The notes: generated from the letters alone by a model not told the origin. 64,000 nt of DNA from Alphaproteobacteria bacterium (GCA_045590955.1 JAZNSB010000059.1:2760-66759); one strand, 5' to 3'. Positions 1 through 51,688 are shown, counted from the stretch's first letter. Translations and numbers: made by a program.

Positions 1-634
1 AAGAAGCTCCCATCCAATGGACGGAATATGTTTCCGGCTTAATTAAATCATGAGAAAATTCCATGTCAAAATGAAGCGGATTAAAATAAGTCGGTGGGTA
101 AATTGTAATATCATCATTTTGCACAACTTCATCTAAGCTTGGCTCTAAATTATACATTTTTTGCAGTATTTGCTTAAAAATCTTGGTAATAATAAAATCA
201 GGGCTTTTCCAAATTTCTTCCTGATAAAAATCAACCATCTCTTTGATAAGGGGATGCCCTTTTTCTGCACCAAACACTGCCATTTCAGGTATGTTATTCA
301 AACAATTACCAATGAACATTTTATGTTGTAAAAAGGGCGCAAAATCTTTATAAACTGTAACATCCGTATCCAAATAAACTCCGCCATGATCATAAACGGC
401 CTTAACTCGCATATAATCGGCAACATAAGCCCACATTTTAAGATCATATACTGTTTTGAACCAAACATTGTGTTCATATTCATATTCATAATCAAACCAT
501 TGTTTTGATTTTTCGTTAAGCTCTATAATTTCAAATCCTGGCATTTTATCACGCCAGTTTTCAATACAAATGTCTGCCATTCTTGATTTTGGCTCACCAT
601 ATCCCCACACATAAAAAATCCGTTTTGGTATCAT
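1..634 (-). CDS. Glycosyltransferase, GT32-like (DXD-containing sugar-binding domain), partial; the N-terminus lies in the window and the C-terminus runs off the window start
   Basis: Manual reverse-complement translation from the ATG at 634 gives MIPKRIFYVWGYGEPKSRMADICIENWRDKMPGFEIIELNE...VYLDTDVTV..., and the frame stays open to position 1. YVWGxG plus the DTD (DXD) motif are typical of Gly_transf_sug / capsule synthesis transferases. The ORF track omits it because it has no stop inside the window. Confidence 0.55.
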   Translation of the reverse strand, partial: MIPKRIFYVWGYGEPKSRMADICIENWRDKMPGFEIIELNEKSKQWFDYEYEYEHNVWFKTVYDLKMWAYVADYMRVKAVYDHGGVYLDTDVTVYKDFAPFLQHKMFIGNCLNNIPEMAVFGAEKGHPLIKEMVDFYQEEIWKSPDFIITKIFKQILQKMYNLEPSLDEVVQNDDITIYPPTYFNPLHFDMEFSHDLIKPETYSVHWMGAS

Positions 635-662
635 TTATTTTTTCCTTTATAATTCATAAAAT

Positions 663-1412
663 TTATAACTCGCCTTTTTGCCATTTTTCATCATAAATTA
701 ATGGAGGAAGTCCATGCCAATCAATACTTCTTTTTTTAACCTGAGCTGGCACACCTACTATTAAACAGTTTTGTTCCGTAAATTTTTTTGTAACAACAGA
801 TGCTATTCCGACAATACAATTATTGGGAATTTGAGCATTTTTTGTGATTGTAACACGTTCCCCCAACCATACATGATCTCCAACTACAATTGGTGTTGTT
901 GGCAAATTTATACATTTTTTGGTTTTTGCATCTAACACGCTATGGCCATCTCCCCAAACTTTTACATTATTGGAAATCATACAATTTTTACCGATTAAAA
1001 CTTCATTACTTATTGAAGCAATAAATAACGAACAGCAGGTAGTCTCTTCACCTATTACAACCTTACAACCATCATCATAACAACCGACATGAAACTCCCC
1101 ACCATTAGCATTCTTAAATTCCACCAAAGAATTATTACCCCCAAAGTTTAATTCAGATCCTGTTAGATTTTTCGGATTTTTAATGGTCAAAACATTTCCA
1201 TCGCCATAAAAAACAACCTTTATTCCCAATTTCCTTTGGGCTTTTTTAGGCGTTAGATAAAATGTTTTGTTATTTTTAATCAATACAATTTTATTGTTTT
1301 TTGGTCTTTGCGCAACCCATATTTTAAAACAAAGAAACCGATAAACTCTAAATGTTTTCATAAAACCAGTTTTAGACATTTTTTTCTTTATTTTTTTTGA
1401 AAACAATCTCAT
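663..1412 (-). CDS. Hexapeptide-repeat (left-handed beta-helix) acyl/acetyltransferase
   Basis: The C-terminal half is full of [LIV]G-x4 hexapeptide repeats (NCMISNNVKVWGDGHSV...IVVGDHVWLGERVTITKNAQIPNNCIVGIASVV). It is tightly linked to the flanking glycosyltransferase genes. Confidence 0.55.
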   Translation of the reverse strand: MRLFSKKIKKKMSKTGFMKTFRVYRFLCFKIWVAQRPKNNKIVLIKNNKTFYLTPKKAQRKLGIKVVFYGDGNVLTIKNPKNLTGSELNFGGNNSLVEFKNANGGEFHVGCYDDGCKVVIGEETTCCSLFIASISNEVLIGKNCMISNNVKVWGDGHSVLDAKTKKCINLPTTPIVVGDHVWLGERVTITKNAQIPNNCIVGIASVVTKKFTEQNCLIVGVPAQVKKRSIDWHGLPPLIYDEKWQKGEL

Positions 1413-1424
1413 ACTTTATACCTA

Positions 1425-1859
1425 CTATTTATTTTGCCATTTTTTTAATATCCAAGAAGAAGAGTTTGTTTTATTGTCTCCACCAACACCAAAAACCAAA
1501 TCAACACCACATTCTTGGCATGTTTTTATCTCTGGTATATTATCTTTTCCTCGGTCGCCTCCATTTGCAAACACAAGCCTGTCATTTGGAAACATCTTGC
1601 GCACTTTACAAATTCCGTCAGAAGCAGAATTATCTCTATCATCAAAATCAATTGCACAAATCACACCTTTTAAGTTTTCACAAATTGTTTGTCTTGTTTT
1701 AAATGATTGAAAATTTCTGCCTTTTTTTCTACACAACCATTCATCAGAATTAACCAATACAACAACACCATCACTTGCCTCTGCAGAAGCTTTAATCATA
1801 GCAATATGACCTTCATGAATTGGATCAAACCCTCCGCTTACAATATAATAAGTTGCCAT
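1425..1859 (-). CDS. Sugar-phosphate nucleotidyltransferase (cytidylyl/adenylyltransferase fold, RfaE-domain-II / TagD-like)
   Basis: [23 protein letters not shown] carries the GxFDxxHxGH signature, with the later LVNSDEW and FANGGDRG motifs. The most likely start is the ATG at 1859, overlapping the upstream gene's stop by 1 nt (TAATG coupling). Confidence 0.6.
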   Translation of the reverse strand: MATYYIVSGGFDPIHEGHIAMIKASAEASDGVVVLVNSDEWLCRKKGRNFQSFKTRQTICENLKGVICAIDFDDRDNSASDGICKVRKMFPNDRLVFANGGDRGKDNIPEIKTCQECGVDLVFGVGGDNKTNSSSWILKKWQNK

Positions 1860-3883
1860 TATTTTTTTCCTTTCAAACATTCAACAATTTTATCAGAAAT
1901 TATTTCACATGTTTTATCCCAAGAAAACATTTTTGCTCTTTCCAAACCTTTTTTAACATATAGATCTCGCATTTGCTTATCATAATAAAAAGTTTTAAAT
2001 GCTTCCAAAACTTCTTCTTCGTTTTGTTCATCCACCAACAAAGCGGCATCTCCCACCACTTCCGGTAAAGAACTATTATTTGCACAAATAACAGGTGTCC
2101 CCGCCATCATGGCTTCCAGTGGAGGCATACCAAACCCTTCATACAACGACAAGAATATAAAGAACAACGAATGGCTATACAGAATATTCACATCCTCCAC
2201 ATCCACATACCCCAACGGCACAATATATTTGGCATATTTTTCATATTTATCGCCCAGATATTTTTTTAAGCCATCAACCAACTTTTCCTTACCATTTCCA
2301 CCCAATAAAAAATATAAGTCCGTTATGTTGTTTTTATCAATAAAATCAATAAAGTATTTCACACTACCAACAATGTTTTTGCGCTTATCATCCACAGCGC
2401 CCATATAGAAAATATATTTTGCTTCAAGATCCAAACTTGTCTCATATTTTTCAAACACAGCTCGTAATTGAACTGGATCATGCAACACCTTAAAGTCTTG
2501 AGCCGAGGAAATAGGCACAACACAAATATGGTCTTCCTTCATATTATCAAAGTATTTTAGGAAATCTGTTTTACTACAATTAGAATTTGCAAAATAGTAC
2601 GTATAAGGTGACAAATTATGATGGAAATCATAAAATACTTTCGTAAACGCATGTGGAAACCACCCATTATCAAACATCGGCATGGCATCATGCAACATAT
2701 AAAAAGAATTAAAGTGCTCAAACTGATTACTATGCGCAGGATTAAAATAACAATCATAGTTAGCTATGTTAAATTTTAAATTTCTAATGATACGATAATT
2801 TCCTCCTTTACCAAGTCTAAATGCGGGACAAATACTTTTGAGATTTTGAAATACTTTATCCTTTGTATAAAAATCAATTAAATAACTGGAACCTACCAAC
2901 AAGGTCACATCAAAACGCTCATCTTGTGCAAACTGTCTCAATAGATTATAGGCCACCCAATAGATACCACGCTTAACCTTTTCATCTTGATCCCCTAAAC
3001 GCAAAACTTCGGCATCAAAAAGCAATTTAATTTTTTTACCGACAGCTGAAAAGGATAATTTTTTCATTAATTCTGACAGCCGTCTTGAAGAATCCGAGTT
3101 GGGATAAATCTTATTTCTGCGCGTCGCATAAACATCTTCTATCAACCGATTAAGAAACAGATTCTTATCCTCCTCACTAATAGGATATTTATTAGGCAAT
3201 TCAGCAACAATGGTAATATACTTTATATAGTCCGCAACTTGTTCAACAGACCAAAAATCAGAATTCAAGCTTCCTTCTCTACGCATATAGTAATACTGAG
3301 CACAATCCATCACCTCTATTTTTTTGGCACAAAAAACAGCGTGAATTAAAAAGCTTGGATCTTCTCCCACCAACAAACCAGCCGGAAATTCTATATTATT
3401 TTTTACAATCAGTTCTTTTTTAAAAATTGCTGTTGTATATTGCCCTAAAAATTGATACTTATTAAGACGAATTCTACAATTAAAACAATCAATCACTTCT
3501 TTTCCATCTGGATAACGTATCTTGAGATCTGCCCCCTTCACAATATCTGCATCAGTTTCTTTGGCTTTGTTATACAGTTTTTCATAAAAATCCGGATCTA
3601 CAAAATCATCAGAATCAACAAACCCCAGATATTCACCTTGGGATTTCTCAATGGCCGTATTTCTTGCCACGGCTGCTCCATGATTTTTTTCAAAATCAAT
3701 TATTTTAATTCTGTTATCTTTTCCAGCATATTCTTGTAACAACTGCAAAGAAGCGTCTGTAGAACAATCATTCACACAAATAATTTCAATATCGGCAAGT
3801 GTCTGAGCAAGCAAACTGTCCAGACACTTTGACAGATATTTTTCTGTATTATAAACCGGAACAATAACAGAAACTTTGATCAT
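1859..3883 (-). CDS. Two-domain glycosyltransferase: N-terminal GT2 (GT-A) fused to C-terminal GT1 (GT-B)
   Basis: The N-terminus reads [43 protein letters not shown]...FVDSDDF (GT2, DxD). The C-terminus reads [31 protein letters not shown] (GT1 EX7E-like region). Total length is 674 aa. Confidence 0.7.
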
Positions 3884-3884
3884 A

Positions 3885-4358
3885 TTATTTTACCTGCTGT
3901 TCTCTGATTTTTGTTTCTTCTTTAGAATAACCGATAGAATCTTTTTCCGGTGTCCAACCAGTATCTTCTTTTACTTCATGGATAGGGTCTGCCAACAAAA
4001 GCTCTTGAGCATCATTATATTCTGACAAGGTCATTACAAAGTTTGCATCTTTTGCAATTTTTGCATCAATTTCTGCTTGCGCATCAGTTTCTTCTGCCGG
4101 CAATAAAATTTCTTTTTCTTTCATTGCATCAATAAGATTCTGCAAATTTTGCTTTACATCATCACCTGCGCCCAATTCTTTTAATTTTGCACATATATTT
4201 TCTTGGCTTACACCTTTGATAATGTTTTCAAACACTACTGTTGCCAAAGAATTCATTCCATAATAAATTCCTGTTTCGCTATTAATGATAATTGCCATAT
4301 CATCAGTAATATCCGCAAACATTTTTTCTTCATTTAATTGATAAGTTGTCATTTTCAC
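3885..4358 (-). CDS. PqqD-family (RiPP recognition element, RRE) protein with an acidic C-terminal extension
   Basis: The N-terminal 90 aa (YQLNEEKMFADITDDMAIIINSETGIYYGMNSLATVVFENIIKGVSQENICAKLKELGAGDDVKQNLQNLIDAMKEKEILL) follow the PqqD/RRE pattern of a beta-strand, xETGxyyxLN, then a winged-helix segment with an acidic patch. It sits 1 nt upstream of the GT gene and 7 nt downstream of the kinase-like gene. Confidence 0.5.
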   Translation of the reverse strand: MKMTTYQLNEEKMFADITDDMAIIINSETGIYYGMNSLATVVFENIIKGVSQENICAKLKELGAGDDVKQNLQNLIDAMKEKEILLPAEETDAQAEIDAKIAKDANFVMTLSEYNDAQELLLADPIHEVKEDTGWTPEKDSIGYSKEETKIREQQVK

Positions 4359-4365
4359 TCCTTTT

Positions 4366-5478
4366 TTAATTTTTTTTCATATTTTCACAAAATTGTCTCA
4401 AACATTTTACGTTTTCATTTATATCAGGACAAAGATTTATCTGATAAAACTTAAAATCTTTTAAGAAACCGATTAATTTTTGTATTGTTTTAATATCATG
4501 TGCATCTTGTGTCTGTTTTACTGTAGAATGTATCAATTGAGTAATTGCTCTGCCTTTTTTGCATTCCACAATAGATGGTTTTTCATCAGGCACAATTTCA
4601 GGGAACATACAAACTTTTATCGGATATTTATCTTTAAATTGGTTATGATATGCATCAATGTTTATTACATATTTGTCTTTTCTGGCATTATTGCACACAA
4701 ACTTTCCTTTAATATCATCATAAAGTTTGCCATACATCTTTGGAGACAAAGTAATAATTGAATAAATCGGATAAGAATATAAGTTTTGACCTTCTTTTTG
4801 CAAAATCAAATAATCATCTGAAACATATTCAAAGCCCTGCATCATGGCAAGCACGGCCAAAGTTGATTTACCTCTTTGTCCTCTGGCACAAAACAAAATT
4901 CCGTTATTATCCAAACCAACCACGGCACCATGCACCAAATTTGTTGTTTCCGTCTTCAAAATTTTATTAAACATTTGCACAAAAATATGACCTTGTTTAA
5001 TAAATTCTTCAAAGCTAAGATCTTTTACACCATAGTAATATGTATTTGTTTCAACATCATGAGCTTCAACAAAACCTTCTGGCATAAACCTGACCACCGG
5101 ATTATGTTTACTGTATTGTTCACACATCCATTCAACTTGCATTACTCCACCGGTAGCTTTGGTTAGCACCTGCTCCAATCTAAACCTTGTTTTAAGCGCT
5201 TCATTATTTTGTATTATTTCTTTTGTCAAAGAAATTGTATCTTTTTCATTCCACAACACAATTGTTGCAACGCAATCAAGCTTTTCATCTGTCATACTAT
5301 AAGATATCTGACGTTGCATCAACGGCAAAAAATCTTGATGATAAGACACAATCTTTACGTTAACAGGACCAAGCTTTACATATTTTTCAAAAGCAACTTC
5401 AGCATTTTTTTCAATATGCTGTCTCAAATTATCAATATAAGTCTTTATCTTAATCAAATTGTTTTCAGTTACCCTCAT
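4366..5478 (-). CDS. HPr-kinase C-terminal-domain-like P-loop protein (serine kinase-like)
   Basis: VHGAVVGLDNNGILFCARGQRGKSTLAVLAMMQGFEYVSDDYLIL parallels the HprK_C core (lHGvlv..G.GvLi.G.SG.GKSelaLeLi.rGh.LvaDD). The N-terminal 200 aa are unrelated to HprK. Confidence 0.5.
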   Translation of the reverse strand: MRVTENNLIKIKTYIDNLRQHIEKNAEVAFEKYVKLGPVNVKIVSYHQDFLPLMQRQISYSMTDEKLDCVATIVLWNEKDTISLTKEIIQNNEALKTRFRLEQVLTKATGGVMQVEWMCEQYSKHNPVVRFMPEGFVEAHDVETNTYYYGVKDLSFEEFIKQGHIFVQMFNKILKTETTNLVHGAVVGLDNNGILFCARGQRGKSTLAVLAMMQGFEYVSDDYLILQKEGQNLYSYPIYSIITLSPKMYGKLYDDIKGKFVCNNARKDKYVINIDAYHNQFKDKYPIKVCMFPEIVPDEKPSIVECKKGRAITQLIHSTVKQTQDAHDIKTIQKLIGFLKDFKFYQINLCPDINENVKCLRQFCENMKKN

Positions 5479-5479
5479 A

Positions 5480-6628
5480 TTATCCCCTATATATTTTCAA
5501 TACTAAATTTATAAGCTTTGGACTTTTATAGATTCTTTTACATATAAAATGTTTTGGCTTATACTTAACCCACTGTTTTAGCTCCTCAAAACTTTTCAAT
5601 GCATTTTTCAGCCTCAATTTTTTACACTTCATTTTTGCTTCATAAACAAACTTTTTATAAAAGAAAACTTTTTCATAATAAGGATATGTTTTCTTGTGCA
5701 AATCTTCATCATTTACAAACTCTGACAAAAAGCCGGGCAAAAGCATTCCAACAAACTTTGCAGCTAAAAACATTGGTGTCAGCGCATTAAAATTAATAGC
5801 AAGTTTTTTTACTTTATTTATATCAAATCCTTCTTGCGACATTAAAAACTGACAGTCAAAAATTGTGAAAAGCACTCCGGAAATTGAACAATTTCTATGC
5901 AAATTTTTTGTCAAATTACATAAAGCAATCAGAAACAAAACTTCATTGTCGGGCACTAATGTTTGTGTTCCAAAAACATTAGTTTGACGAGCACCGTCCA
6001 ACAGCATTGACAAATACTTTTTATCATAATCAATATCCAAATCCAAAAATCTGTGAATATCCAAAATTCCGGCGTCTGACCCAGGCAAATGCAAATCCAC
6101 ACTGTGAGCACCCTCTTCCTGCTCTGCTTCATATCCCATATCTCTGGCAATTTCCAAAGATTTTTCATATTTTGCATTATCCAAAATCAAAACATCAATA
6201 TCGCCCATATGCCTTGGCAAATCAAACCTCAGATGTTTCATTGCGCCACCTTTTATTATCATCGGCACAATATCGTGTTCGTTTAATTTTTTACAAATTT
6301 TTGTATAGTGAGCAAGCAATCCCAAATTTGCAAACCTAAAGAAATTCATCACACCGTTTAATCTGGGCAAAATTTCTTCCGGCCATTTCAGATTCGGATT
6401 CTGTTTTTTAACATATGCCAATAAAAGAGCTGTTTTGGCATCGTTTTCATCCAACTTCCAAACCTCAAACAATTTATCCAAATTTTCTTGAGTTTTTTCT
6501 TGAACAAACACAAAATCCATCAATCTTTTGTTTTTTGCAGAAACAATTTCTTCATAAAAACACATCAGCAGATTCTTTTCCACATCTGCCGCACTCTTAG
6601 TTTGCTTAAATACATTATCCAAATTCAT
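5480..6628 (-). CDS. Uncharacterised nucleotidyltransferase (PF14907/NTP_transf_5-like)
   Basis: MIIKGGAMKHLRFDLPRHMGDIDVLI has the G[GS]x9-13DxD nucleotidyltransferase signature. Its length and downstream helical region fit the family that co-occurs with PqqD and HprK homologues. It is the first gene of the operon, divergent from ligA. Confidence 0.45.
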   Translation of the reverse strand: MNLDNVFKQTKSAADVEKNLLMCFYEEIVSAKNKRLMDFVFVQEKTQENLDKLFEVWKLDENDAKTALLLAYVKKQNPNLKWPEEILPRLNGVMNFFRFANLGLLAHYTKICKKLNEHDIVPMIIKGGAMKHLRFDLPRHMGDIDVLILDNAKYEKSLEIARDMGYEAEQEEGAHSVDLHLPGSDAGILDIHRFLDLDIDYDKKYLSMLLDGARQTNVFGTQTLVPDNEVLFLIALCNLTKNLHRNCSISGVLFTIFDCQFLMSQEGFDINKVKKLAINFNALTPMFLAAKFVGMLLPGFLSEFVNDEDLHKKTYPYYEKVFFYKKFVYEAKMKCKKLRLKNALKSFEELKQWVKYKPKHFICKRIYKSPKLINLVLKIYRG

Positions 6629-6727
6629 TTTTTAATCCTCGCTCAGCAGAATACTACCCCCTCCGGATTTTTCAAACTTTTTTTTATTTTATTTCAAAGT
6701 TTTGTGGATTAAAAAAAATAATAATGA

Positions 6728-8836
<2,109 letters not shown>

Positions 8837-8837
8837 A

Positions 8838-9200
8838 TTACTTTTTGTTGTTATAAATCTTTTCATCAATAAAAGATTTCATTTTTTCTTTATATTCGGC
8901 ACCCCATTCCAACAAAGAATCAATAATGGGTTTAAGGCTTTTTCCCAAATTAGTAAGTTTATACTCTACTTTTGGTGGAATTTGCGCATATACTTTTCTA
9001 ATCAAAATGCCTTGCTCTTCTAACTTTTTCAAATTAGAAGTTAATACTTTTTGAGTAATATCTCCCAACTCTTTTTTGAGCTCTCCAAATCTTTTTGTTC
9101 CTTGCAATAAGGTCTCTACGATAAGAATTTTCCACTTATCCCCAATTATATCCAAGGCAAATTTTGTTGGGTGATTATTTTCTTTTTCTTTCTTTTCCAC
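8838..9200 (-). CDS. HxlR-family winged-helix transcriptional regulator
   Basis: DIIGDKWKILIVETLLQGTKRFGELKKELGDITQKVLTSNLKKLEEQGILIRKVY is the canonical HxlR HTH. Confidence 0.75.
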   Translation of the reverse strand: MEKKEKENNHPTKFALDIIGDKWKILIVETLLQGTKRFGELKKELGDITQKVLTSNLKKLEEQGILIRKVYAQIPPKVEYKLTNLGKSLKPIIDSLLEWGAEYKEKMKSFIDEKIYNNKK

Positions 9201-9342
9201 TATTTTTTCACCTGACTAAAATGCAGAAAACATATTATAGTATCTTTTAGAAACTAAGGCTTTCTAAAGTGCCTACTTTACGAAATACGATATATGACTA
9301 TAGTTAGCAAGTCAAATAAAAATTAAAACAAGAAGGAAAAAA

Positions 9343-10599
9343 ATGAAAAAAAATTACAAATTAGCATTACTGTGCACTGCCGGCGCATTAATAATGAGCA
9401 ATGTAGCTCATGCAAGCGGTTATCAGTTAAATGAATTTTCTGCCACAGGATTGGGAAGAGCTTTTTCCGGCGCAGGTATTGTTGGCGACGACTATTCTGC
9501 CATTGCGTTTAACCCTGCAGGCATGATGTTAAAAGATTCCGGCATCCAAGGCGGATTAACCTCTGTTCAGATGCATTCAAACGTAACCGGAGAAATTGAA
9601 TCTACCATCCCTTACCCCAATACTCCAAACGGACGTATGAATTTATGGAAGGCTTTACCACACTTTTTCGGACAATACAAATTAAACGACAAAACCAGAG
9701 TTGGTTTGGGCGTATATTCTCCGTTTGGTTTGGCATCAGTATATAACTATAATTGGTTTGGTGCGGGACACGGCACAAAAACAGAATTGGAAGTTGTAGA
9801 TGTTGCTGCAGCTTTGGCATATCAAATAGATCCCAAAGTAAGCATTGGTGGTTCTGTGATTTACAGATATGTTCATGGCAACCTTATCAATGCTTTTACA
9901 AAAAGCGGATACTTTTTTCCCGGCACTGTAAACCAAATGGACTTAGACGGCTGGGATTTTGCATATAGCTTTGGCCTTATGTTTGAACCCGTAAAAGGCA
10001 CACGTTTTGGTGCATCATACAGAATAAACAATGCACATACCGTAAAAGGTCAAAACAAAATTTATGGATTGACCACACCTCCGTTTAGCGCATTAAACGG
10101 TATTTATGAAGGTCGTTCTACCATGACTTTGCCGGACACATTAACATTGTCTGCTTTTCATAAGTTGAACGACAAAATTGACCTAACGGCAACAGCCAGA
10201 TACACACGTTGGTCTGTATTTGACGACTTTGTAATGCAAACAACTGCCGGTGGCGGATCTGTTGTAAGAATTCCGGAACGTTGGGGCAATGTATGGACAT
10301 ATTCTTTAGGTATGGATTACCATTACAACGACAACTGGACATTCAGAACCGGTGTTGCCTATGACCCAACTCCAATCAGAAACTCAACATTCCGCACAGC
10401 CAGAATTCCTGATTCTGACAGATTTTGGGTAACTGTTGGTACCAGCTATAAAAAAGACAACATGCAATTTGACCTCGGATATTCCCACCTGTTTATGCGC
10501 ACAGGCAGATCAAACAATACATACGAAGGCTTAACATTGCATACACGTCATGAAAATTACAGCAACATGATTGGAGCGCAAATTCAATATAATTTCTAA
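9343..10599 (+). CDS. fadL: FadL/OmpP1-family outer-membrane transporter for hydrophobic compounds
   Basis: A signal peptide is followed by the conserved N-terminal hatch motif GYQLNEFSATGLGRAFSGAG. The protein is 418 aa with a C-terminal aromatic residue (…QYNF). Confidence 0.75.
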   Translation: MKKNYKLALLCTAGALIMSNVAHASGYQLNEFSATGLGRAFSGAGIVGDDYSAIAFNPAGMMLKDSGIQGGLTSVQMHSNVTGEIESTIPYPNTPNGRMNLWKALPHFFGQYKLNDKTRVGLGVYSPFGLASVYNYNWFGAGHGTKTELEVVDVAAALAYQIDPKVSIGGSVIYRYVHGNLINAFTKSGYFFPGTVNQMDLDGWDFAYSFGLMFEPVKGTRFGASYRINNAHTVKGQNKIYGLTTPPFSALNGIYEGRSTMTLPDTLTLSAFHKLNDKIDLTATARYTRWSVFDDFVMQTTAGGGSVVRIPERWGNVWTYSLGMDYHYNDNWTFRTGVAYDPTPIRNSTFRTARIPDSDRFWVTVGTSYKKDNMQFDLGYSHLFMRTGRSNNTYEGLTLHTRHENYSNMIGAQIQYNF

Positions 10600-10620
10600 T
10601 CATTTCTGTTATAGCGCTCA

Positions 10621-10657
10621 AACACCCTTTGCTTAACATCAAAGGGTGTTTTTGTTT
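10621..10657 (+). terminator. Rho-independent terminator downstream of fadL
   Basis: aacaccctttg-cttaacat-caaagggtgtt forms an 11-bp perfect stem, followed by tttgttt. Confidence 0.7.
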
Positions 10658-10732
10658 GGCATAATTTGTGCAATTTTGTTGAAAAGCAATAAAAAATCAA
10701 CTAAATTAAATAAAATTTTTTAGGAAAAACAC

Positions 10733-11392
10733 ATGATTGCAAAATTAACAGGAACCATAGATTTTATTGGAGCAGAAAGCATTATCCTAGATGTAAACGG
10801 AGTTGGATATCTGGTTTTTTGCACCTCAAGAACTCTCGGCAGATTAACAAAAGGAACAATTATCTCCCTATATACAGAAACCGTTGTTAGAGAAGATAGT
10901 ATCACAATATACGGCTTTGCCGATATGTTGGAAAAAGAGTGGTTCCTAACCTTAACCAAAGTTCAAGGCGTAGGATCAAAAGTAGGACTGAGCATTTTAT
11001 CATCTGCAAGTTGCACAGAGCTGTCTCAAGCACTTGTTGTTCAAGACAAAAACATATTCGCCAGAGCCAACGGTGTAGGTCCTAAACTTGCCCAAAGAAT
11101 TGTTACGGAATTAAAAGATAAAATTGTTCAGCTACCGCTTGGAGCTCAAAAATCAGATTTGGGTAATGCCTTAAATATAGGCACCACAGATTCTCTGTCG
11201 GCTCCAATACCGGAAGAAACATATTCTGACCCCACAGCCATGGAAGATGCCATTTCTGCGCTTGTCAACTTAGGATACCAAAAAATAGAAGCATATCGCG
11301 CCGTTAATTTAGCGGCCAAAAACAACCCTCAGGCTGATATGCAAGAACTAATAAAACAAGCACTAAAAGAATTTGTTAAAAAGGAGTTTTAA
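10733..11392 (+). CDS. ruvA: Holliday junction DNA helicase RuvA
   Basis: MIAKLTGTIDFIGAESIILDVNGVGYLVFCTSRTL... is the typical RuvA N-terminus, followed by HhH domains. Confidence 0.9.
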   Translation: MIAKLTGTIDFIGAESIILDVNGVGYLVFCTSRTLGRLTKGTIISLYTETVVREDSITIYGFADMLEKEWFLTLTKVQGVGSKVGLSILSSASCTELSQALVVQDKNIFARANGVGPKLAQRIVTELKDKIVQLPLGAQKSDLGNALNIGTTDSLSAPIPEETYSDPTAMEDAISALVNLGYQKIEAYRAVNLAAKNNPQADMQELIKQALKEFVKKEF

Positions 11393-11395
11393 TAT

Positions 11396-12436
11396 ATGGA
11401 AGAAAGACTTGTAAGCCCTAATACGCTTGAAGAAGACAATTCAGAGATTAATACTCCGATAAACCTTCGTCCAAACAAATTAAGCGAATTTGTCGGACAA
11501 CAACAGGTTTGTGAAAATCTGCAAGTGTTTATTCAATCTGCAAAATCAAGAAATGAGGCTTTGGACCACACTTTATTTTTTGGACCTCCCGGACTTGGCA
11601 AAACCACGCTTGCCGGCATTGTTGCCAAAGAACTTGGTGTAAACTTTAAAGCAACTTCAGCCCCCATGATTACAAAATCTGGAGATTTAGCTGCCATTTT
11701 AACCAATCTTGAAGCAAATGATGTTTTGTTTATTGATGAAATTCATCGCCTCAATCCGGCAATTGAAGAAGTTTTATATTCTGCAATGGAAGATTTTCAG
11801 CTTGATTTGATTATTGGCGAAGGTCCTTCTGCCAGATCTGTAAAAATAGATCTTAAACCATTTACATTAATCGGGGCCACCACCCGCTCAGGATTACTTT
11901 CTGCTCCATTAAGAGAAAGGTTTGGCATTCCGTTAAGATTAGACTTTTATACACCACAAGAATTAATGCAAATTGTTCAAAGAGGAGCAAACTTGCTTGG
12001 CATCAACATGAATAAAGAAGGAGCTTTAGAAATTGCCAAAAGATCACGTGGCACTCCTCGTGTGGCAGGCAGACTTCTTAAAAGGGTAAGAGATTTTGGA
12101 TTAATATCAAAAGCAAAAACCATAGATGAGCAAATTGCCGATAACGCACTTATGCGTCTTGAAGTAGATAATTATGGTTTAGATTCGTTTGACAGAAGAT
12201 ACCTTGGTTGCATTGTAAAAAATTATGGCGGAGGCCCTGTTGGTGCAGACACACTCGCAGCAGCTCTTTCTGAAGAAAGAGATACAATTGAAGAAGTTAT
12301 TGAACCATTTTTGCTAAAACTTGGATTTATCCAAAGAACCCCCCGGGGCAGAGTAATTTCTGAACTTGGATATTCTTATTTAGGCCTAACACCACTCAAA
12401 AAAACAACAAAGCAGTTTGATTTATTGGAGGATTAA
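11396..12436 (+). CDS. ruvB: Holliday junction DNA helicase RuvB
   Basis: [15 protein letters not shown]...[21 protein letters not shown] (Walker A) and DEIHRL (Walker B). Confidence 0.95.
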
Positions 12437-12439
12437 ATT

Positions 12440-12892
12440 ATGACAGATTGTGTAATGCCTGCAACCGGTAAGCTTATCGGTAACAAGTTTTATTATCCCA
12501 TCAGAGTATATTTTGAAGATACCGATATAGAAGGCATTGTATACTTTGCCAACTATCTTAAATTTGCAGAAAGAGCCCGCACGGAATTTGTTCGTTATCT
12601 TGGATTTAGACAACAAGACAATTTTGAAAACGGAGAAAAAAAAGGTTTTGTGGTAAAACACATGGAAATAGATTACAAAAAACCCGCCACACTGGACGAC
12701 TGTTTAACTGTTACCGTCCAAATTTCAAAAATGAAAAACGTAAGCATTGAACTTATTCAAGAAATAAAACGCCAAGAAGAAACCTTGGCAGTAGTTACCA
12801 TAAAAGTCGGTTATATGGACTTTAACAGTGGAAGTTTATGCAAATTAAGTCCTCAAATGCTTGAAAAATTTGCTTTAGCAAGTTGCTGTTAA
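12440..12892 (+). CDS. ybgC: Tol-Pal-associated acyl-CoA thioesterase YbgC (4HBT fold)
   Basis: YYPIRVYFEDTDIEGIVYFANYLKFAERARTEFVRYLGF matches YbgC, and it lies directly upstream of tolQ. Confidence 0.8.
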   Translation: MTDCVMPATGKLIGNKFYYPIRVYFEDTDIEGIVYFANYLKFAERARTEFVRYLGFRQQDNFENGEKKGFVVKHMEIDYKKPATLDDCLTVTVQISKMKNVSIELIQEIKRQEETLAVVTIKVGYMDFNSGSLCKLSPQMLEKFALASCC

Positions 12893-13486: not shown

Positions 13487-14224
13487 ATGGATACACAACT
13501 TTTAACAACAGCTACTGCCGGAAATTCATTTTATGATTTAGTCTGGGATTCAGACTGGATGACCAAAATCATTTTACTTGGATTGATTGCCGCTTCTGTA
13601 TGGACATGGGCCATTATCATTGAAAAAATCGGTATGTTTAAACAACTCAAAATGCGCACCAAAAGTTTTGAAGCAAAATTTTGGTCAGGCGGTTCACTGG
13701 ACAGATTATATGAAAACATTGGCAACAAACCCAAAGACCCAATGTCTGCCATGTTTGTTGCAGCCATGAAAGAATGGAAAAGAACAAATATTTTAAAAGC
13801 AAAAATAGACAGAGGCTTTAGGGGTGTTTCTTTGCAACAAAGAATAGAAAAGTCAATGTGTGTTTCCATGGACAAAGAACTTGAAGCAATGGAAACCCGT
13901 CTTGGATTTTTATCTTCTACCGGTTCTGTGGCTCCGTTTGTAGGATTATTTGGAACTGTTTGGGGAATTATGGATTGCTTTCAAGCTATTGCCCTAACAC
14001 AAAACAACTCTCTATCTGCCATTGCTCCCGGTATTGCAGAAGCCTTATTTACTACTGCCTTTGGTTTAATTGCCGCTATTCCGGCTGTAATTGCTTATAA
14101 CAAATTTTCTTCAGATGTAGACAGATATGCCAAACGTTTAGAAAACTTTTTAAGTGAATTCTCAAGCATTTTATCAAGAGAAATTGACGATAGCGCCATG
14201 AAAGCAGAAATTGCAGGAGAATAA
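13487..14224 (+). CDS. tolQ: Tol-Pal system protein TolQ (MotA/TolQ/ExbB proton channel)
   Basis: Three TM helices and the C-terminal conserved region SVAPFVGLFGTVWGIMDCFQAI...PGIAEALFTTAFGLIAAIPAVIAYN. Confidence 0.85.
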   Translation: MDTQLLTTATAGNSFYDLVWDSDWMTKIILLGLIAASVWTWAIIIEKIGMFKQLKMRTKSFEAKFWSGGSLDRLYENIGNKPKDPMSAMFVAAMKEWKRTNILKAKIDRGFRGVSLQQRIEKSMCVSMDKELEAMETRLGFLSSTGSVAPFVGLFGTVWGIMDCFQAIALTQNNSLSAIAPGIAEALFTTAFGLIAAIPAVIAYNKFSSDVDRYAKRLENFLSEFSSILSREIDDSAMKAEIAGE

Positions 14225-49273: not shown

Positions 49274-51688
49274 TTGTTCAAAAAGGCCGGACATATTTTT
49301 GTTTTTTTTGTCGGAATGTATCTGACACTTTTGCTTGCTAGCACAAACTCTCAAGCATCAACGGGCTCTAGTGTAACATTAAGTTTTCCGTGGAACAACC
49401 AAGTAAGTTCTGCCGTATTTTTTAGAGAAGGTTATTTATGGATTGTTTTTGACCGCAAACATGAATTTGATCTGCAGGAACTTGCCAGAACTTCTAAAGA
49501 ATATATAAAAGAAATTGTATCTCTCCCCCATCCAAAAGCCACAATCTTGCGTTTGTTGCCCACAGACAAAATCTTTGTTGCCGTAAGAAAAGAAGGTTTG
49601 CTTTGGATTGTTGATATTTTTGACAAAGAAAGAGAGCCTTTAAGAAGTGCCACAAAAATCCTTACCGAATTTGACGGTCTTCAACATTCTTACCTGTTTA
49701 TTCCATCTGCCACATCAGGAAATGCCATCTCCATCATAGACCCATTGGTTGGAGATACACTGCTCATTATCCCTTCTGCAGATTATTCTTTAAATCTGCC
49801 CACAAATTATTCTTACCCTGATTTAGAATTTTTGCAATCTGTTCAAGGTATTGCCATTGTCCCCAACACAGATGATTTATATTTAAATAAAACCACAGAG
49901 GGAATATCTATCAAAGCACAAAAGCGCAGTTTACACATTTCAAACAACCTTGAATATCTTAAAAAAGAACAACTTTTTTCTACAGCTGCAACAGAAGATA
50001 AAGACCTTCTTTTACCCCATGTTGATATGAACAAACATAACTTTATTGCCTCAGAACATAAGCTTATCACAGATTTGTCTCTTGCATCTGCAAACAACAA
50101 ACAATCTGCCCGTACAGAACTTGCCAAATTTTATATCGGACACGGACTTGGAACAAACGCTCTTGGTTTGTTGGCGCAAAATTACAAAGCAAACCCTAAT
50201 CAAAACAAACAATTTTACTTTTTAAGAGGACTTGCAAACTTTTTGACCAAAAGATATCAAGAAGCATCTGCAGATTTTTCAAACAAATTACTTGAAGGAG
50301 ATGAAAACGCCATATTCTGGCAAACAATCACTCAGTCTCAAACACAAATAAAACCACAAGATAATGCAATTACTTCTGCATATATTTATCTTTTGAGCAA
50401 TTACCCCGAAGATTTAAAAGAAAGAGCCTCTCTTGCCGGAGCACACATAGCTATTTCTGCAGAAGACGACGTAACAGCTCATAAGTTTTTAGACATATTA
50501 AAAAATGCAAATGTCAATCGCTTAAGAAAAGCCCACATAAAATACATCACTGGCAAAATATTTTTACTCCAGGGATACCCTCAAAATGCTTTAAGAGAAT
50601 TTACAGACATTGCACGCTCAGATTCACAAAAATGGGCATCTTTTTCCAGAAAAGAAATTGCCAATTTGGCACATGCTTTCAACTTTATCAGCATATCAGA
50701 TGCCACACAAGAACTTGAAAAAATATACTTTGCTTGGCACACCCAAAGCTTTAGAGAACAAGTTTTGCATGATTTGATTTATCTTTATTCAGAAAATCAA
50801 GATTACCACAGAGCTATAGAAAGAGAATATGAACTATATAAAATGCAAACAGATGAAGTAAAAAAAGCCCAAACCAAACAACAAATGATAACAACAATAG
50901 AAAACCTGTTTTTAGAAGACGTAAACATCAAAATTTCTGCCTTCAAGATTTTGGCTTTATATGACTCTTTTAATTGGATTGCTGTGCAAAGCCCAAAATA
51001 CAACAGCATTGTCAGAAAACTTGTAGATAGACTTGTTGCCGTAGATTTGTTGGAAAGAGCAAAAGAATTAATCAAAACTCAACTGGCAGACAAAAAAACT
51101 CCGAATACAGAAAAACAAAAATTGATAGCCCGACTTGCTCTCATATATCTTTTTGAAAATGCCCCTACACAAGCATTAAAAGTAATTCAAGACAACAAAC
51201 ATTTAAATGCAGACAAACAAATGACAGAGCAAATTCAGGTCATTAAAGCCAGAGCATATATAGACATCAACAGACCTGATTTGGCTTTAAAAACTCTTGA
51301 AAAAGAAAACACCAAGAATGCTATATTATTAAAAACAGATTTATATATGAAAGCCCAAAAATGGGAACAAGCCGCAGACAGTATCAAACAACTCATAGAA
51401 CCGGCTGTTGCAGGCAAGCCTCTTTCTGATGAACAAGCAGAATATATTTTAGACTGGGCATTGGCTTTGAAAAAAGCTGGCAAAGAAACTGTTTTGGTCA
51501 GACTAAGAAACAGCTTCTTACCCCAATTTGAAAAAACCAAGTATTACAGCCCGTTTTCTTTATTAACCAGCCACTTGGATTCTAATAAAATAGATTTAAA
51601 TAAAATAGAAAAAACCATAGATGATACCAAATTATTCAGCAATTTTGTAAAAAGTTACAACAAATCTTTGCAAGAAATAGGACAATAA
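49274..51688 (+). CDS. Large periplasmic TPR-like repeat protein in the flagellar locus (TTG start)
   Basis: An 804-aa protein with a signal peptide (…[12 protein letters not shown]) and a helical-repeat-rich body. It is co-directional with and adjacent to motE. Confidence 0.45.

Follow-up and report, generated by a model that had tools for sequence, protein, structure and literature searches.

The first 6,628 nucleotides of a 64,000-nucleotide stretch of DNA from Alphaproteobacteria bacterium (GCA_045590955.1, JAZNSB010000059.1:2760-66759; the whole stretch is called the window here) encode, on the minus strand, a nucleotidyltransferase, a kinase of the HprK/phosphoenolpyruvate carboxykinase (PEPCK) fold, and a protein with a recognition element (RRE) of the kind seen in pathways for ribosomally synthesized peptides with post-translational modifications (RiPPs). 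Cytoplasmic glycosyltransferases (GTs) and sugar-processing enzymes are encoded directly behind this triad. We consider it quite possible, if somewhat short of probable, that the locus is a self-contained phospho-glycosylation cassette resembling those of the Linear Polyphosphorylated Peptides (LPPs), with the acceptor fused to its own RRE. The kinase would phosphorylate a Ser/Thr, and the nucleotidyltransferase, a PF14907 enzyme, would install the first sugar on the phosphate, as PsmN does on the phospho-Ser of pseudomycoidin. GT2, GT4, and GT32 enzymes would extend a strain-specific glycan, with a cytidylyltransferase-like enzyme feeding the pathway and an acetyltransferase decorating the product. 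The acceptor would be the 42-residue disordered tail of the RRE protein, most likely at T136 and/or T133 beside an invariant G-W. Recognition element and "precursor" would then be one polypeptide, and a leader peptidase would not be needed.

The RRE protein (3885-4358) is 157 aa long and its PqqD score, 23.4 bits, lies exactly at the gathering threshold (GA) of the Pfam model. The RRE itself, a winged-helix domain of the PqqD or lasso B1 type, occupies aa 1-88 (4095..4358, minus strand). A profile of the protein matches TbiB1 in the PDB with an E value of 2.3e-6. In Foldseek its AlphaFold2 (AF2) model matches TbiB1 and TfuB1, both solved as leader complexes, with a TM-score of 0.82 and a probability of 1.0. 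The model has the RRE fold that a preliminary description of the window, made from the sequence alone, had anticipated for 3885..4358. Within the domain, the β-strand region GIYYGMN is nearly invariant. The gene probably starts at the ATG at 4352, with homologues beginning MTNYxLNE. An apparent "...ELCIK" motif at the kinase C-terminus was rejected, as it arises where the conserved MNYxLNE start of the following gene overlaps out of frame.

Behind the RRE domain the preliminary description had placed a 60-aa acidic tail. This region is better described as two segments. The first, aa 89-115 (4014..4094, minus strand), is an ordered 27-aa extension of the domain with a variable acidic sequence, a helix at 99-104, and a strand at 111-114 ending in Y114. 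AF2 folds aa 1-115 confidently as the RRE with the extra helix and strand, with a per-residue confidence (pLDDT) of ~90 up to aa ~115. The second, aa 116-157 (3888..4013, minus strand), is an invariant module of 42 aa, DAQELLLADPIHEVKEDTGWTPEKDSIGYSKEETKIREQQVK, that is predicted to be disordered (pLDDT <50 for aa 118-141) and is a candidate acceptor or docking peptide. The sequence Y114-N-D-A was evaluated as a leader-like RRE-binding motif of the [Y/W]xxP type and rejected. The strand with Y114 at its end is modeled with confidence and recurs in tail-less second RREs fused to kinases; therefore, it belongs to the domain.

In alignments of 186 unique sequences, conservation along the RRE protein is highest at aa 116-157 and not in the RRE domain. 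Many columns of the tail consensus, D-A-Q-E-L-L-L-A-D-P-I-H-E-V-K-E-[ED]-T-G-W-T-P-E-K..., are identical in 184-186 of the 186. The conservation of the tail suggests an option beyond the two listed in the preliminary description (an acceptor encoded elsewhere, or a surface glycoconjugate), namely that the RRE protein may provide the acceptor in its own tail. Invariance together with predicted disorder is what one typically finds in a peptide that enzymes read. The T133-G-W-T136 stretch is encoded at 3951-3962, and a Ser or Thr is found at position 133 and/or 136 in 207 of 212 unique tails (98%). T136 as a strictly conserved acceptor was rejected given the A, L, K, N, or Q found there in divergent members; only the presence of a hydroxyl at 133 and/or 136 holds. 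On these grounds, we regard the tail as a possible, though not yet a probable, acceptor.

The tail was also used alone in a phmmer search of 1.8 billion representative proteins, which gave 29 matches at E<=0.001. Apart from one chance ankyrin protein, all are members of the RRE-tail family or fragments of them. The ankyrin protein, P0267, matched in multiple repeats and was rejected as a homologue, its ankyrin repeats (LLLDAGADVNVKDDSGWTPLH) having only a chance resemblance to the tail. The tail motif LLLADPIHEVKEETGWTPE is near the ankyrin-repeat consensus LLLDAGADVNVKDDSGWTPLH, enough to draw such a protein into the search. P0250 and P0242 were rejected as stand-alone tail peptides of 50-70 aa, as they are gene fragments at the edges of contigs of 570-759 bp. 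P0245 and P0261, in which the motif is on larger proteins, appear to be chimeric or mis-called genes.

The kinase in most family loci is ~490-515 aa long with an RRE-like domain fused at the C-terminus (L005, L015, L016, L021, L023, and most Gastranaerophilales). This kinase-fused domain ends at the equivalent of Y114 without a tail, and a separate tail-bearing protein is still encoded. The spirochaete locus L074 has the second, tail-less RRE as a separate 143-aa gene (L074:3349-3711), in the order nucleotidyltransferase, RRE-tail protein, kinase, RRE. A tail-less RRE on the kinase side together with a retained tail-bearing protein fits an enzyme-side RRE plus a tail-bearing substrate.

The three families assigned to the triad in the preliminary description were right. 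The first gene of the operon (5480..6628, minus strand) encodes a Pol-β-type nucleotidyltransferase of PF14907 (NTP_transf_5; E 5e-18, 66 bits against a GA of 31), the Pfam family that includes PsmN and LppN. Its Pol-β signature, G127...D143-x-D145, is conserved together with D190 and H192 in 79 family members. In the same loci, the nucleotidyltransferase diverges faster (median 35% identity to the window copy) than the kinase (50-66%) or the RRE-tail protein (57-70%); judged from these identities, a donor or first-sugar specificity varying with the glycan would fit. The second gene (4366..5478, minus strand) encodes a P-loop kinase with a two-domain, PEPCK-like architecture. Like HprK/P and PEP carboxykinase, it has the P-loop kinase fold and the GxxGxGKS...DD signature, placing it in the HprK/PEPCK superfamily. 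The profile searches suggested in the preliminary description bore out PF14907, above GA, and PqqD, at GA, but the kinase falls below the family thresholds with 20.1 bits for PF07475 (GA 33.3) and 15.9 for TIGR00679 (threshold 240). It also differs from HprK/P in that its N-terminal domain and two-domain layout superpose better on PEPCK, and in lacking any phosphotransferase system (PTS) or HPr context; PTS genes were not found near the operon. Some of the kinase homologues (P0007, P0013, P0014, and others) have a precomputed PF27840 match, while the window kinase had none in the Pfam scan.

The preliminary description had linked this combination to lasso-peptide tailoring, in which the kinase phosphorylates a Ser of the precursor, and that link has experimental precedent. 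In pseudomycoidin biosynthesis, the HprK-like PsmK phosphorylates the C-terminal Ser, and the addition of one or two hexoses to the phosphate depends on PsmN, an "uncharacterised NTP transferase" that works through a DxD site (PMC6993621). Similar to the paeninodin and pseudomycoidin clusters, the window operon encodes a B1-type RRE, an HprK-like kinase, and a PF14907 tailoring enzyme, and the closest solved structures and sequences to the window RRE are lasso B1 proteins. Unlike those clusters, it has no Asn-synthetase-like cyclase, B2 peptidase, ABC exporter, or lasso precursor, and glycan extension would be by dedicated classical GTs.

The same three families also define the LPPs of Bacillota, described by Popov et al. 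(Nat Commun 2026; PMC13381572). Of the systems known so far, these and the paeninodin and pseudomycoidin lasso clusters come nearest to the window operon. The LPP core consists of an SpI peptidase, a discrete RRE (Pfam PqqD), an HprK-like kinase, an NTP_transf_5 protein (LppN in Suppl. Data 2), and an MsbA-like exporter. LPP kinases almost never match Hpr_kinase_C. One to three precursors of 35-200 aa carry the leader YxxPxVLxHQxIxFET/xxS (the slash marks the cleavage site); cleavage is after T(-1) and LppK polyphosphorylates S3. LppN was inactive in heterologous expression, and the final glycosylated product and the biological role are unknown. Both LPP and paeninodin clusters lie in capsule or GT-rich loci (PMC13381572). 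The PsmK/PsmN precedent and the recurrence of the three families in the GT-rich loci of LPPs argue for phospho-glycosylation as the chemistry of the window operon.

An "undescribed pathway" had been proposed for the window. That holds only in part, as the cyclase-less grouping of an RRE, an HprK-like kinase, and NTP_transf_5 in GT-rich loci is already described for LPPs (PMC13381572). The window locus shares with LPPs the discrete PqqD-type RRE and the two enzymes, the lack of a lasso cyclase, and the GT- or capsule-type surroundings. The E-T-x-x-S/T pattern at the LPP phospho-site also resembles the tail of the window RRE protein, where E132-T133-G-W-T136 has the same spacing as the LPP junction E-T(-1)/x-x-S(3). 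What sets the window apart as a distinct, undescribed variant is the absence of the SipW-type SpI peptidase, MsbA-like exporter, and separate precursors of LPPs, an exporter being present in only two of 46 complete related loci. The window RRE has the fused invariant 42-aa tail, and in its family a further RRE is often fused to the kinase. The operon of the triad also contains the GTs, immediately after it, and the hosts are diderm and mostly uncultured bacteria rather than Bacillota. A literature search found nothing relevant on PF14907 or on Melainabacteria with PqqD, and no paper describing the diderm triad family.

We scanned one genome per species and recovered 80 loci, all from metagenome-assembled genomes or otherwise uncultured isolates. 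Most are from the Gastranaerophilales/Melainabacteria. The others are from gut Alphaproteobacteria, Rickettsiales/Rickettsiaceae, Desulfovibrionaceae, Bacteroidales, Planctomycetota, and Spirochaetia. The carriers thus span at least six phyla-level lineages, all diderm. The homologues of the kinase number more than 612, with identities of 50-66%, and more than 1,088 homologues of the RRE protein, nearly all 152-164 aa, are 57-70% identical over the full length. By ORF calling and clustering, the gene order nucleotidyltransferase, kinase, RRE protein is present in ~75 of the 80 reference-genome loci, and tblastn located the RRE protein in 86 of 87 loci. In each of the 61 loci whose sequence spans 6 kb or more, the triad is followed by one to eight GT genes (median four). 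This agrees with the synteny expected in the preliminary description, that the triad always travels with GTs. Among 54 loci, 50 different five-gene orders are found downstream. The triad is a fixed core across more than 80 loci, and the GT set is hypervariable.

It could be argued that the triad and the GTs are functionally unrelated neighbors, such as the remnant of a RiPP tailoring cassette that had inserted into a polysaccharide locus, as the GT content differs from locus to locus and glycan loci are insertion hot spots. We find this very improbable given the co-orientation and 1-13 nt spacing in the window, the co-occurrence in 61 of 61 loci over distant lineages, and the strong purifying conservation of all three proteins with their catalytic motifs intact.

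A peptide or protein encoded elsewhere could instead be the acceptor for the same enzymology, with the tail a docking hub for the kinase, the nucleotidyltransferase, and/or the first GT. A search for conserved small ORFs in or near the loci found only an XRE-type regulator in six loci and antisense artefacts. The LPP leader motif YxxPxVLxHQxIxFET/xxS had zero matches in the window and zero in the loci (1.46 Mb). The lasso precursor motif ([Y/W]xxPxL leader, Thr at -2) had none in the window and ten in the six-frame translation of the 1.46 Mb, a number consistent with chance. The lack of any other conserved small ORF or LPP or lasso precursor motif counts in favor of the tail as acceptor. A separate acceptor is also at odds with the horizontal spread of the triad, which over at least six phyla-level lineages would require a compatible unlinked acceptor in each host, and which a self-contained acceptor explains. 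In addition, kinase-associated second RREs without the tail would be odd for a general enzyme-docking device. On the other side, the RRE fold is that of the leader-binding lasso B1 proteins, the near invariance of the GIYYGMN strand region implies that the bound partner is conserved, an invariant sequence would suit a protein-protein interface, and the hydroxyl at 136 is not universal. The part of the LPP leader that does not touch the RRE is likewise proposed to contact enzymes (PMC13381572). With no candidate precursor in more than 80 loci or the 64-kb window, an acceptor encoded elsewhere seems unlikely to us, though it deserves serious consideration.

Several points weigh against fusion of the acceptor to the RRE. 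An enzyme-docking motif fits the invariant tail equally well, and AF2 shows no docked tail conformation. RiPP cores are usually variable while leaders are conserved. Position 136 is A, L, K, N, or Q in divergent members and five of the 212 tails lack a hydroxyl at both 133 and 136. LppK did not accept an S3T substrate (PMC13381572), while the window family mostly has Thr. The resemblance of the tail to the LPP motif spans only ~4-5 positions and could be due to chance. A hypervariable glycan argues for surface exposure, yet no export route is encoded. The window edge also cuts the operon, placing genes further downstream outside.

Only one peptidase-like gene recurs in the more than 80 loci, a DUF1796 "putative papain-like cysteine peptidase" (cluster c14) in eight of them (L016, L023, L032, L043, L045, L051, L059, and L067). 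In those loci it could process the tail.

The product could also be a surface glycoconjugate, such as a lipooligosaccharide (LOS) or lipopolysaccharide (LPS)-core-like, capsule-like, or other lipid-linked glycan. The triad would then be repurposed to phosphorylate a sugar or lipid at the inner membrane and to nucleotidylate or glycosylate it, and the RRE-like protein would be no more than a structural subunit. The operon does have multiple GTs with nucleotide-sugar and tailoring enzymes that vary between strains, as O-antigen, capsule, and LOS loci have. The hypervariable GT2, GT4, GT8, GT32, DUF4422, MptE-like/WaaZ-like, epimerase, UDP-glucose dehydrogenase, and acetyl- and methyltransferase genes of the family resemble LOS or capsule loci. 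Such loci need no dedicated flippase when MsbA is used, and all carriers are diderm. A GC content of the operon below that of its flanks, as in acquired glycan islands, the capsule setting of LPP and paeninodin clusters, and a short basic-aromatic-hydrophobic terminal tag on several enzymes that is a possible membrane anchor are in line with this as well. However, an initiating phosphoglycosyltransferase, Wzx/Wzy, Wzm/Wzt, a GT9 heptosyltransferase, and a Kdo (3-deoxy-D-manno-octulosonic acid) transferase are all lacking from the operon and from the recurrent genes of related loci, though unlinked genes are possible. The HprK-like kinases of the characterized lasso and LPP clusters examined act on peptides, and what a genuine RRE with an invariant disordered peptide would contribute to the chemistry of lipids or sugars is not obvious. 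A sugar-metabolic role is documented for no member of the triad, and none of the relatives turned out to be an ordinary O-antigen or capsule locus with such a demonstrated role. We consider a glycoconjugate product distinctly doubtful.

The seven-gene operon encodes no cyclase, peptidase, exporter, or precursor, as had been noted before. The Asn-synthetase-like macrolactam cyclase and the transglutaminase-like B2 peptidase are absent from the operon and from the recurrent neighbors in related loci. No recurrent cyclase, B2 or SpI peptidase, Wzx/Wzy, or initiating transferase was found among those loci. The SipW-type SpI leader peptidase model (TIGR02228) matched none of the seven operon proteins; the remainder of the 64-kb window was scanned only in part. 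A tblastn search with an MsbA-like exporter from a related locus gave no match within the window. PqqA/B/C/E neighbors, indicative of PQQ (pyrroloquinoline quinone) biosynthesis proper, are found neither in the operon nor in related loci, and PADLOC matched no defense system.

Seven co-directional, closely spaced minus-strand ORFs are called at positions 1-6628, at the same coordinates as in the preliminary description. In transcription order the junctions are 1 nt, 7 nt, 1 nt, an overlap, 12 nt, and 28 nt; with ATG 4352 as the start of the RRE gene, the kinase-RRE junction becomes 13 nt. The last two junctions exceed the 9-nt limit given for all. The tight same-strand spacing makes a single operon likely despite these two wider junctions.

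Following the triad is a fused GT2 and GT1/GT4 glycosyltransferase (1859..3883, minus strand; Pfam Glycos_transf_2 7e-40, Glycos_transf_1 2e-20), whose cluster (c12) recurs in ten related loci. The next gene (1425..1880, minus strand) encodes a cytidylyltransferase-like sugar- or polyol-phosphate nucleotidyltransferase of the RfaE domain II/TagD type (PF01467 4e-9; TIGR02199 1e-11). It is followed by a hexapeptide-repeat O-acetyltransferase similar to WbbJ/WcaF (663..1412, minus strand; NF007240 7e-15; Hexapep) and a GT32 with the DXD sugar-binding region (Gly_transf_sug; 1..634, minus strand; PF04488 2e-16). The GT32 gene is cut by the window edge; its translation is open from 2 to 634, complete at the 5' end and truncated at the 3' end. 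The operon probably continues past this edge. Related loci go on after the corresponding point with a ~220-aa GT2, present in 31 of 46 complete loci, and often a radical SAM (S-adenosylmethionine) enzyme, present in 20 of the 46. Other recurrent accessories are GT8, DUF4422, GT32, aldo-keto reductases, a split transketolase, an FkbM-type methyltransferase, MptE-like proteins, an epimerase, and UDP-glucose dehydrogenase.

Unrelated cassette enzymes share a terminal tag, [KR]-x-[KR]-[YWH]-[YF]-L-F-G-[FI]-[IL]-P, which is sometimes duplicated (L003, L015, L017, L018, L022, L024, L032, L034, L045, L067, and others). It is found on a ~286-aa GT2 preceding the nucleotidyltransferase, aldo-keto reductases, the transketolase C subunit, and fusions of aldo-keto reductase with radical SAM. 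The N-terminus of the window acetyltransferase (663-1412), RVYRFLCFKIW, is similar to this tag. The tag could serve to anchor the enzymes in a membrane or to dock them. In several Gastranaerophilales loci, a repeated intergenic element ("...PLPLPPPTRGGG..." antisense) lies shortly 3' of the RRE-tail gene (L035 ~11998-12138, L038 ~12106-12192, L042 ~12241-12462, L044 ~13584-13724, and L052 ~11978-12157). It is probably a genomic repeat.

Upstream, the operon is separated from the divergent ligA by an intergenic region (6629..6730) presumed to hold the promoter. As was supposed earlier, this region of ~100-130 bp has no room for a precursor gene. Inspection of its sequence revealed no ORF, and Rfam had no match in or near the operon. 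Promoter and terminator scans gave matches not above shuffle expectation, and this was also the case for promoter-like matches in 6629..6730. The GC content of the operon (window 1-6628) is 0.31-0.35, compared to 0.37-0.41 in flanking housekeeping genes (7000-12000), and its lower value suggests horizontal acquisition. The rest of the window has the housekeeping genes of a low-GC diderm bacterium, including ligA, ruvAB, a FadL-like outer-membrane protein, AspRS, DsbD, M16/M24 peptidases, DegP, and HflK/C. Two large ORFs have no Pfam match at E<=1e-5: 42680-45655 (minus strand, 991 aa) and 49274-51688 (plus strand, 804 aa).

We tentatively propose the 157-aa protein as a natural RRE-substrate fusion, with the tail phosphorylated at T136/T133, phospho-glycosylated by the PF14907 enzyme, and serving as the primer for a strain-specific glycan built by the GTs. 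The glycan may stay on the protein or pass to another acceptor. With similar reserve, we suggest that protein-primed phosphoglycan synthesis without a leader peptidase or dedicated exporter is widespread in gut Melainabacteria, gut Alphaproteobacteria, and Rickettsiales-like bacteria. Glycogenin, the LysW amino-group carrier protein, and the pearlin scaffold peptides are protein- or peptide-primed assembly systems. If the tail is indeed the acceptor, the RRE-tail protein would resemble them in concept only, as a small encoded polypeptide with a disordered tail that is the covalent anchor for a non-peptide product; they have no sequence or fold relationship to it and use other chemistry.

A tail that acts as acceptor in cis would be, to our knowledge, the first natural RiPP recognition element fused to its own substrate and a bacterial example of protein-primed phosphoglycan synthesis. 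It would also provide a tractable three-protein system in which to determine the function of PF14907 enzymes, PsmN and LppN among them. More than 1,000 "hypothetical" proteins, which show almost no variation in Melainabacteria of human and animal guts and in several endosymbiont-like lineages, would gain a function. The hypervariable glycan module there suggests that the cassette acts in contacts with the host, phages, or the community. Even if the acceptor is encoded elsewhere or the product is a surface glycoconjugate, LPP-type chemistry would extend from Bacillota to diderm bacteria, where it is hard-wired to classical glycosyltransferases.

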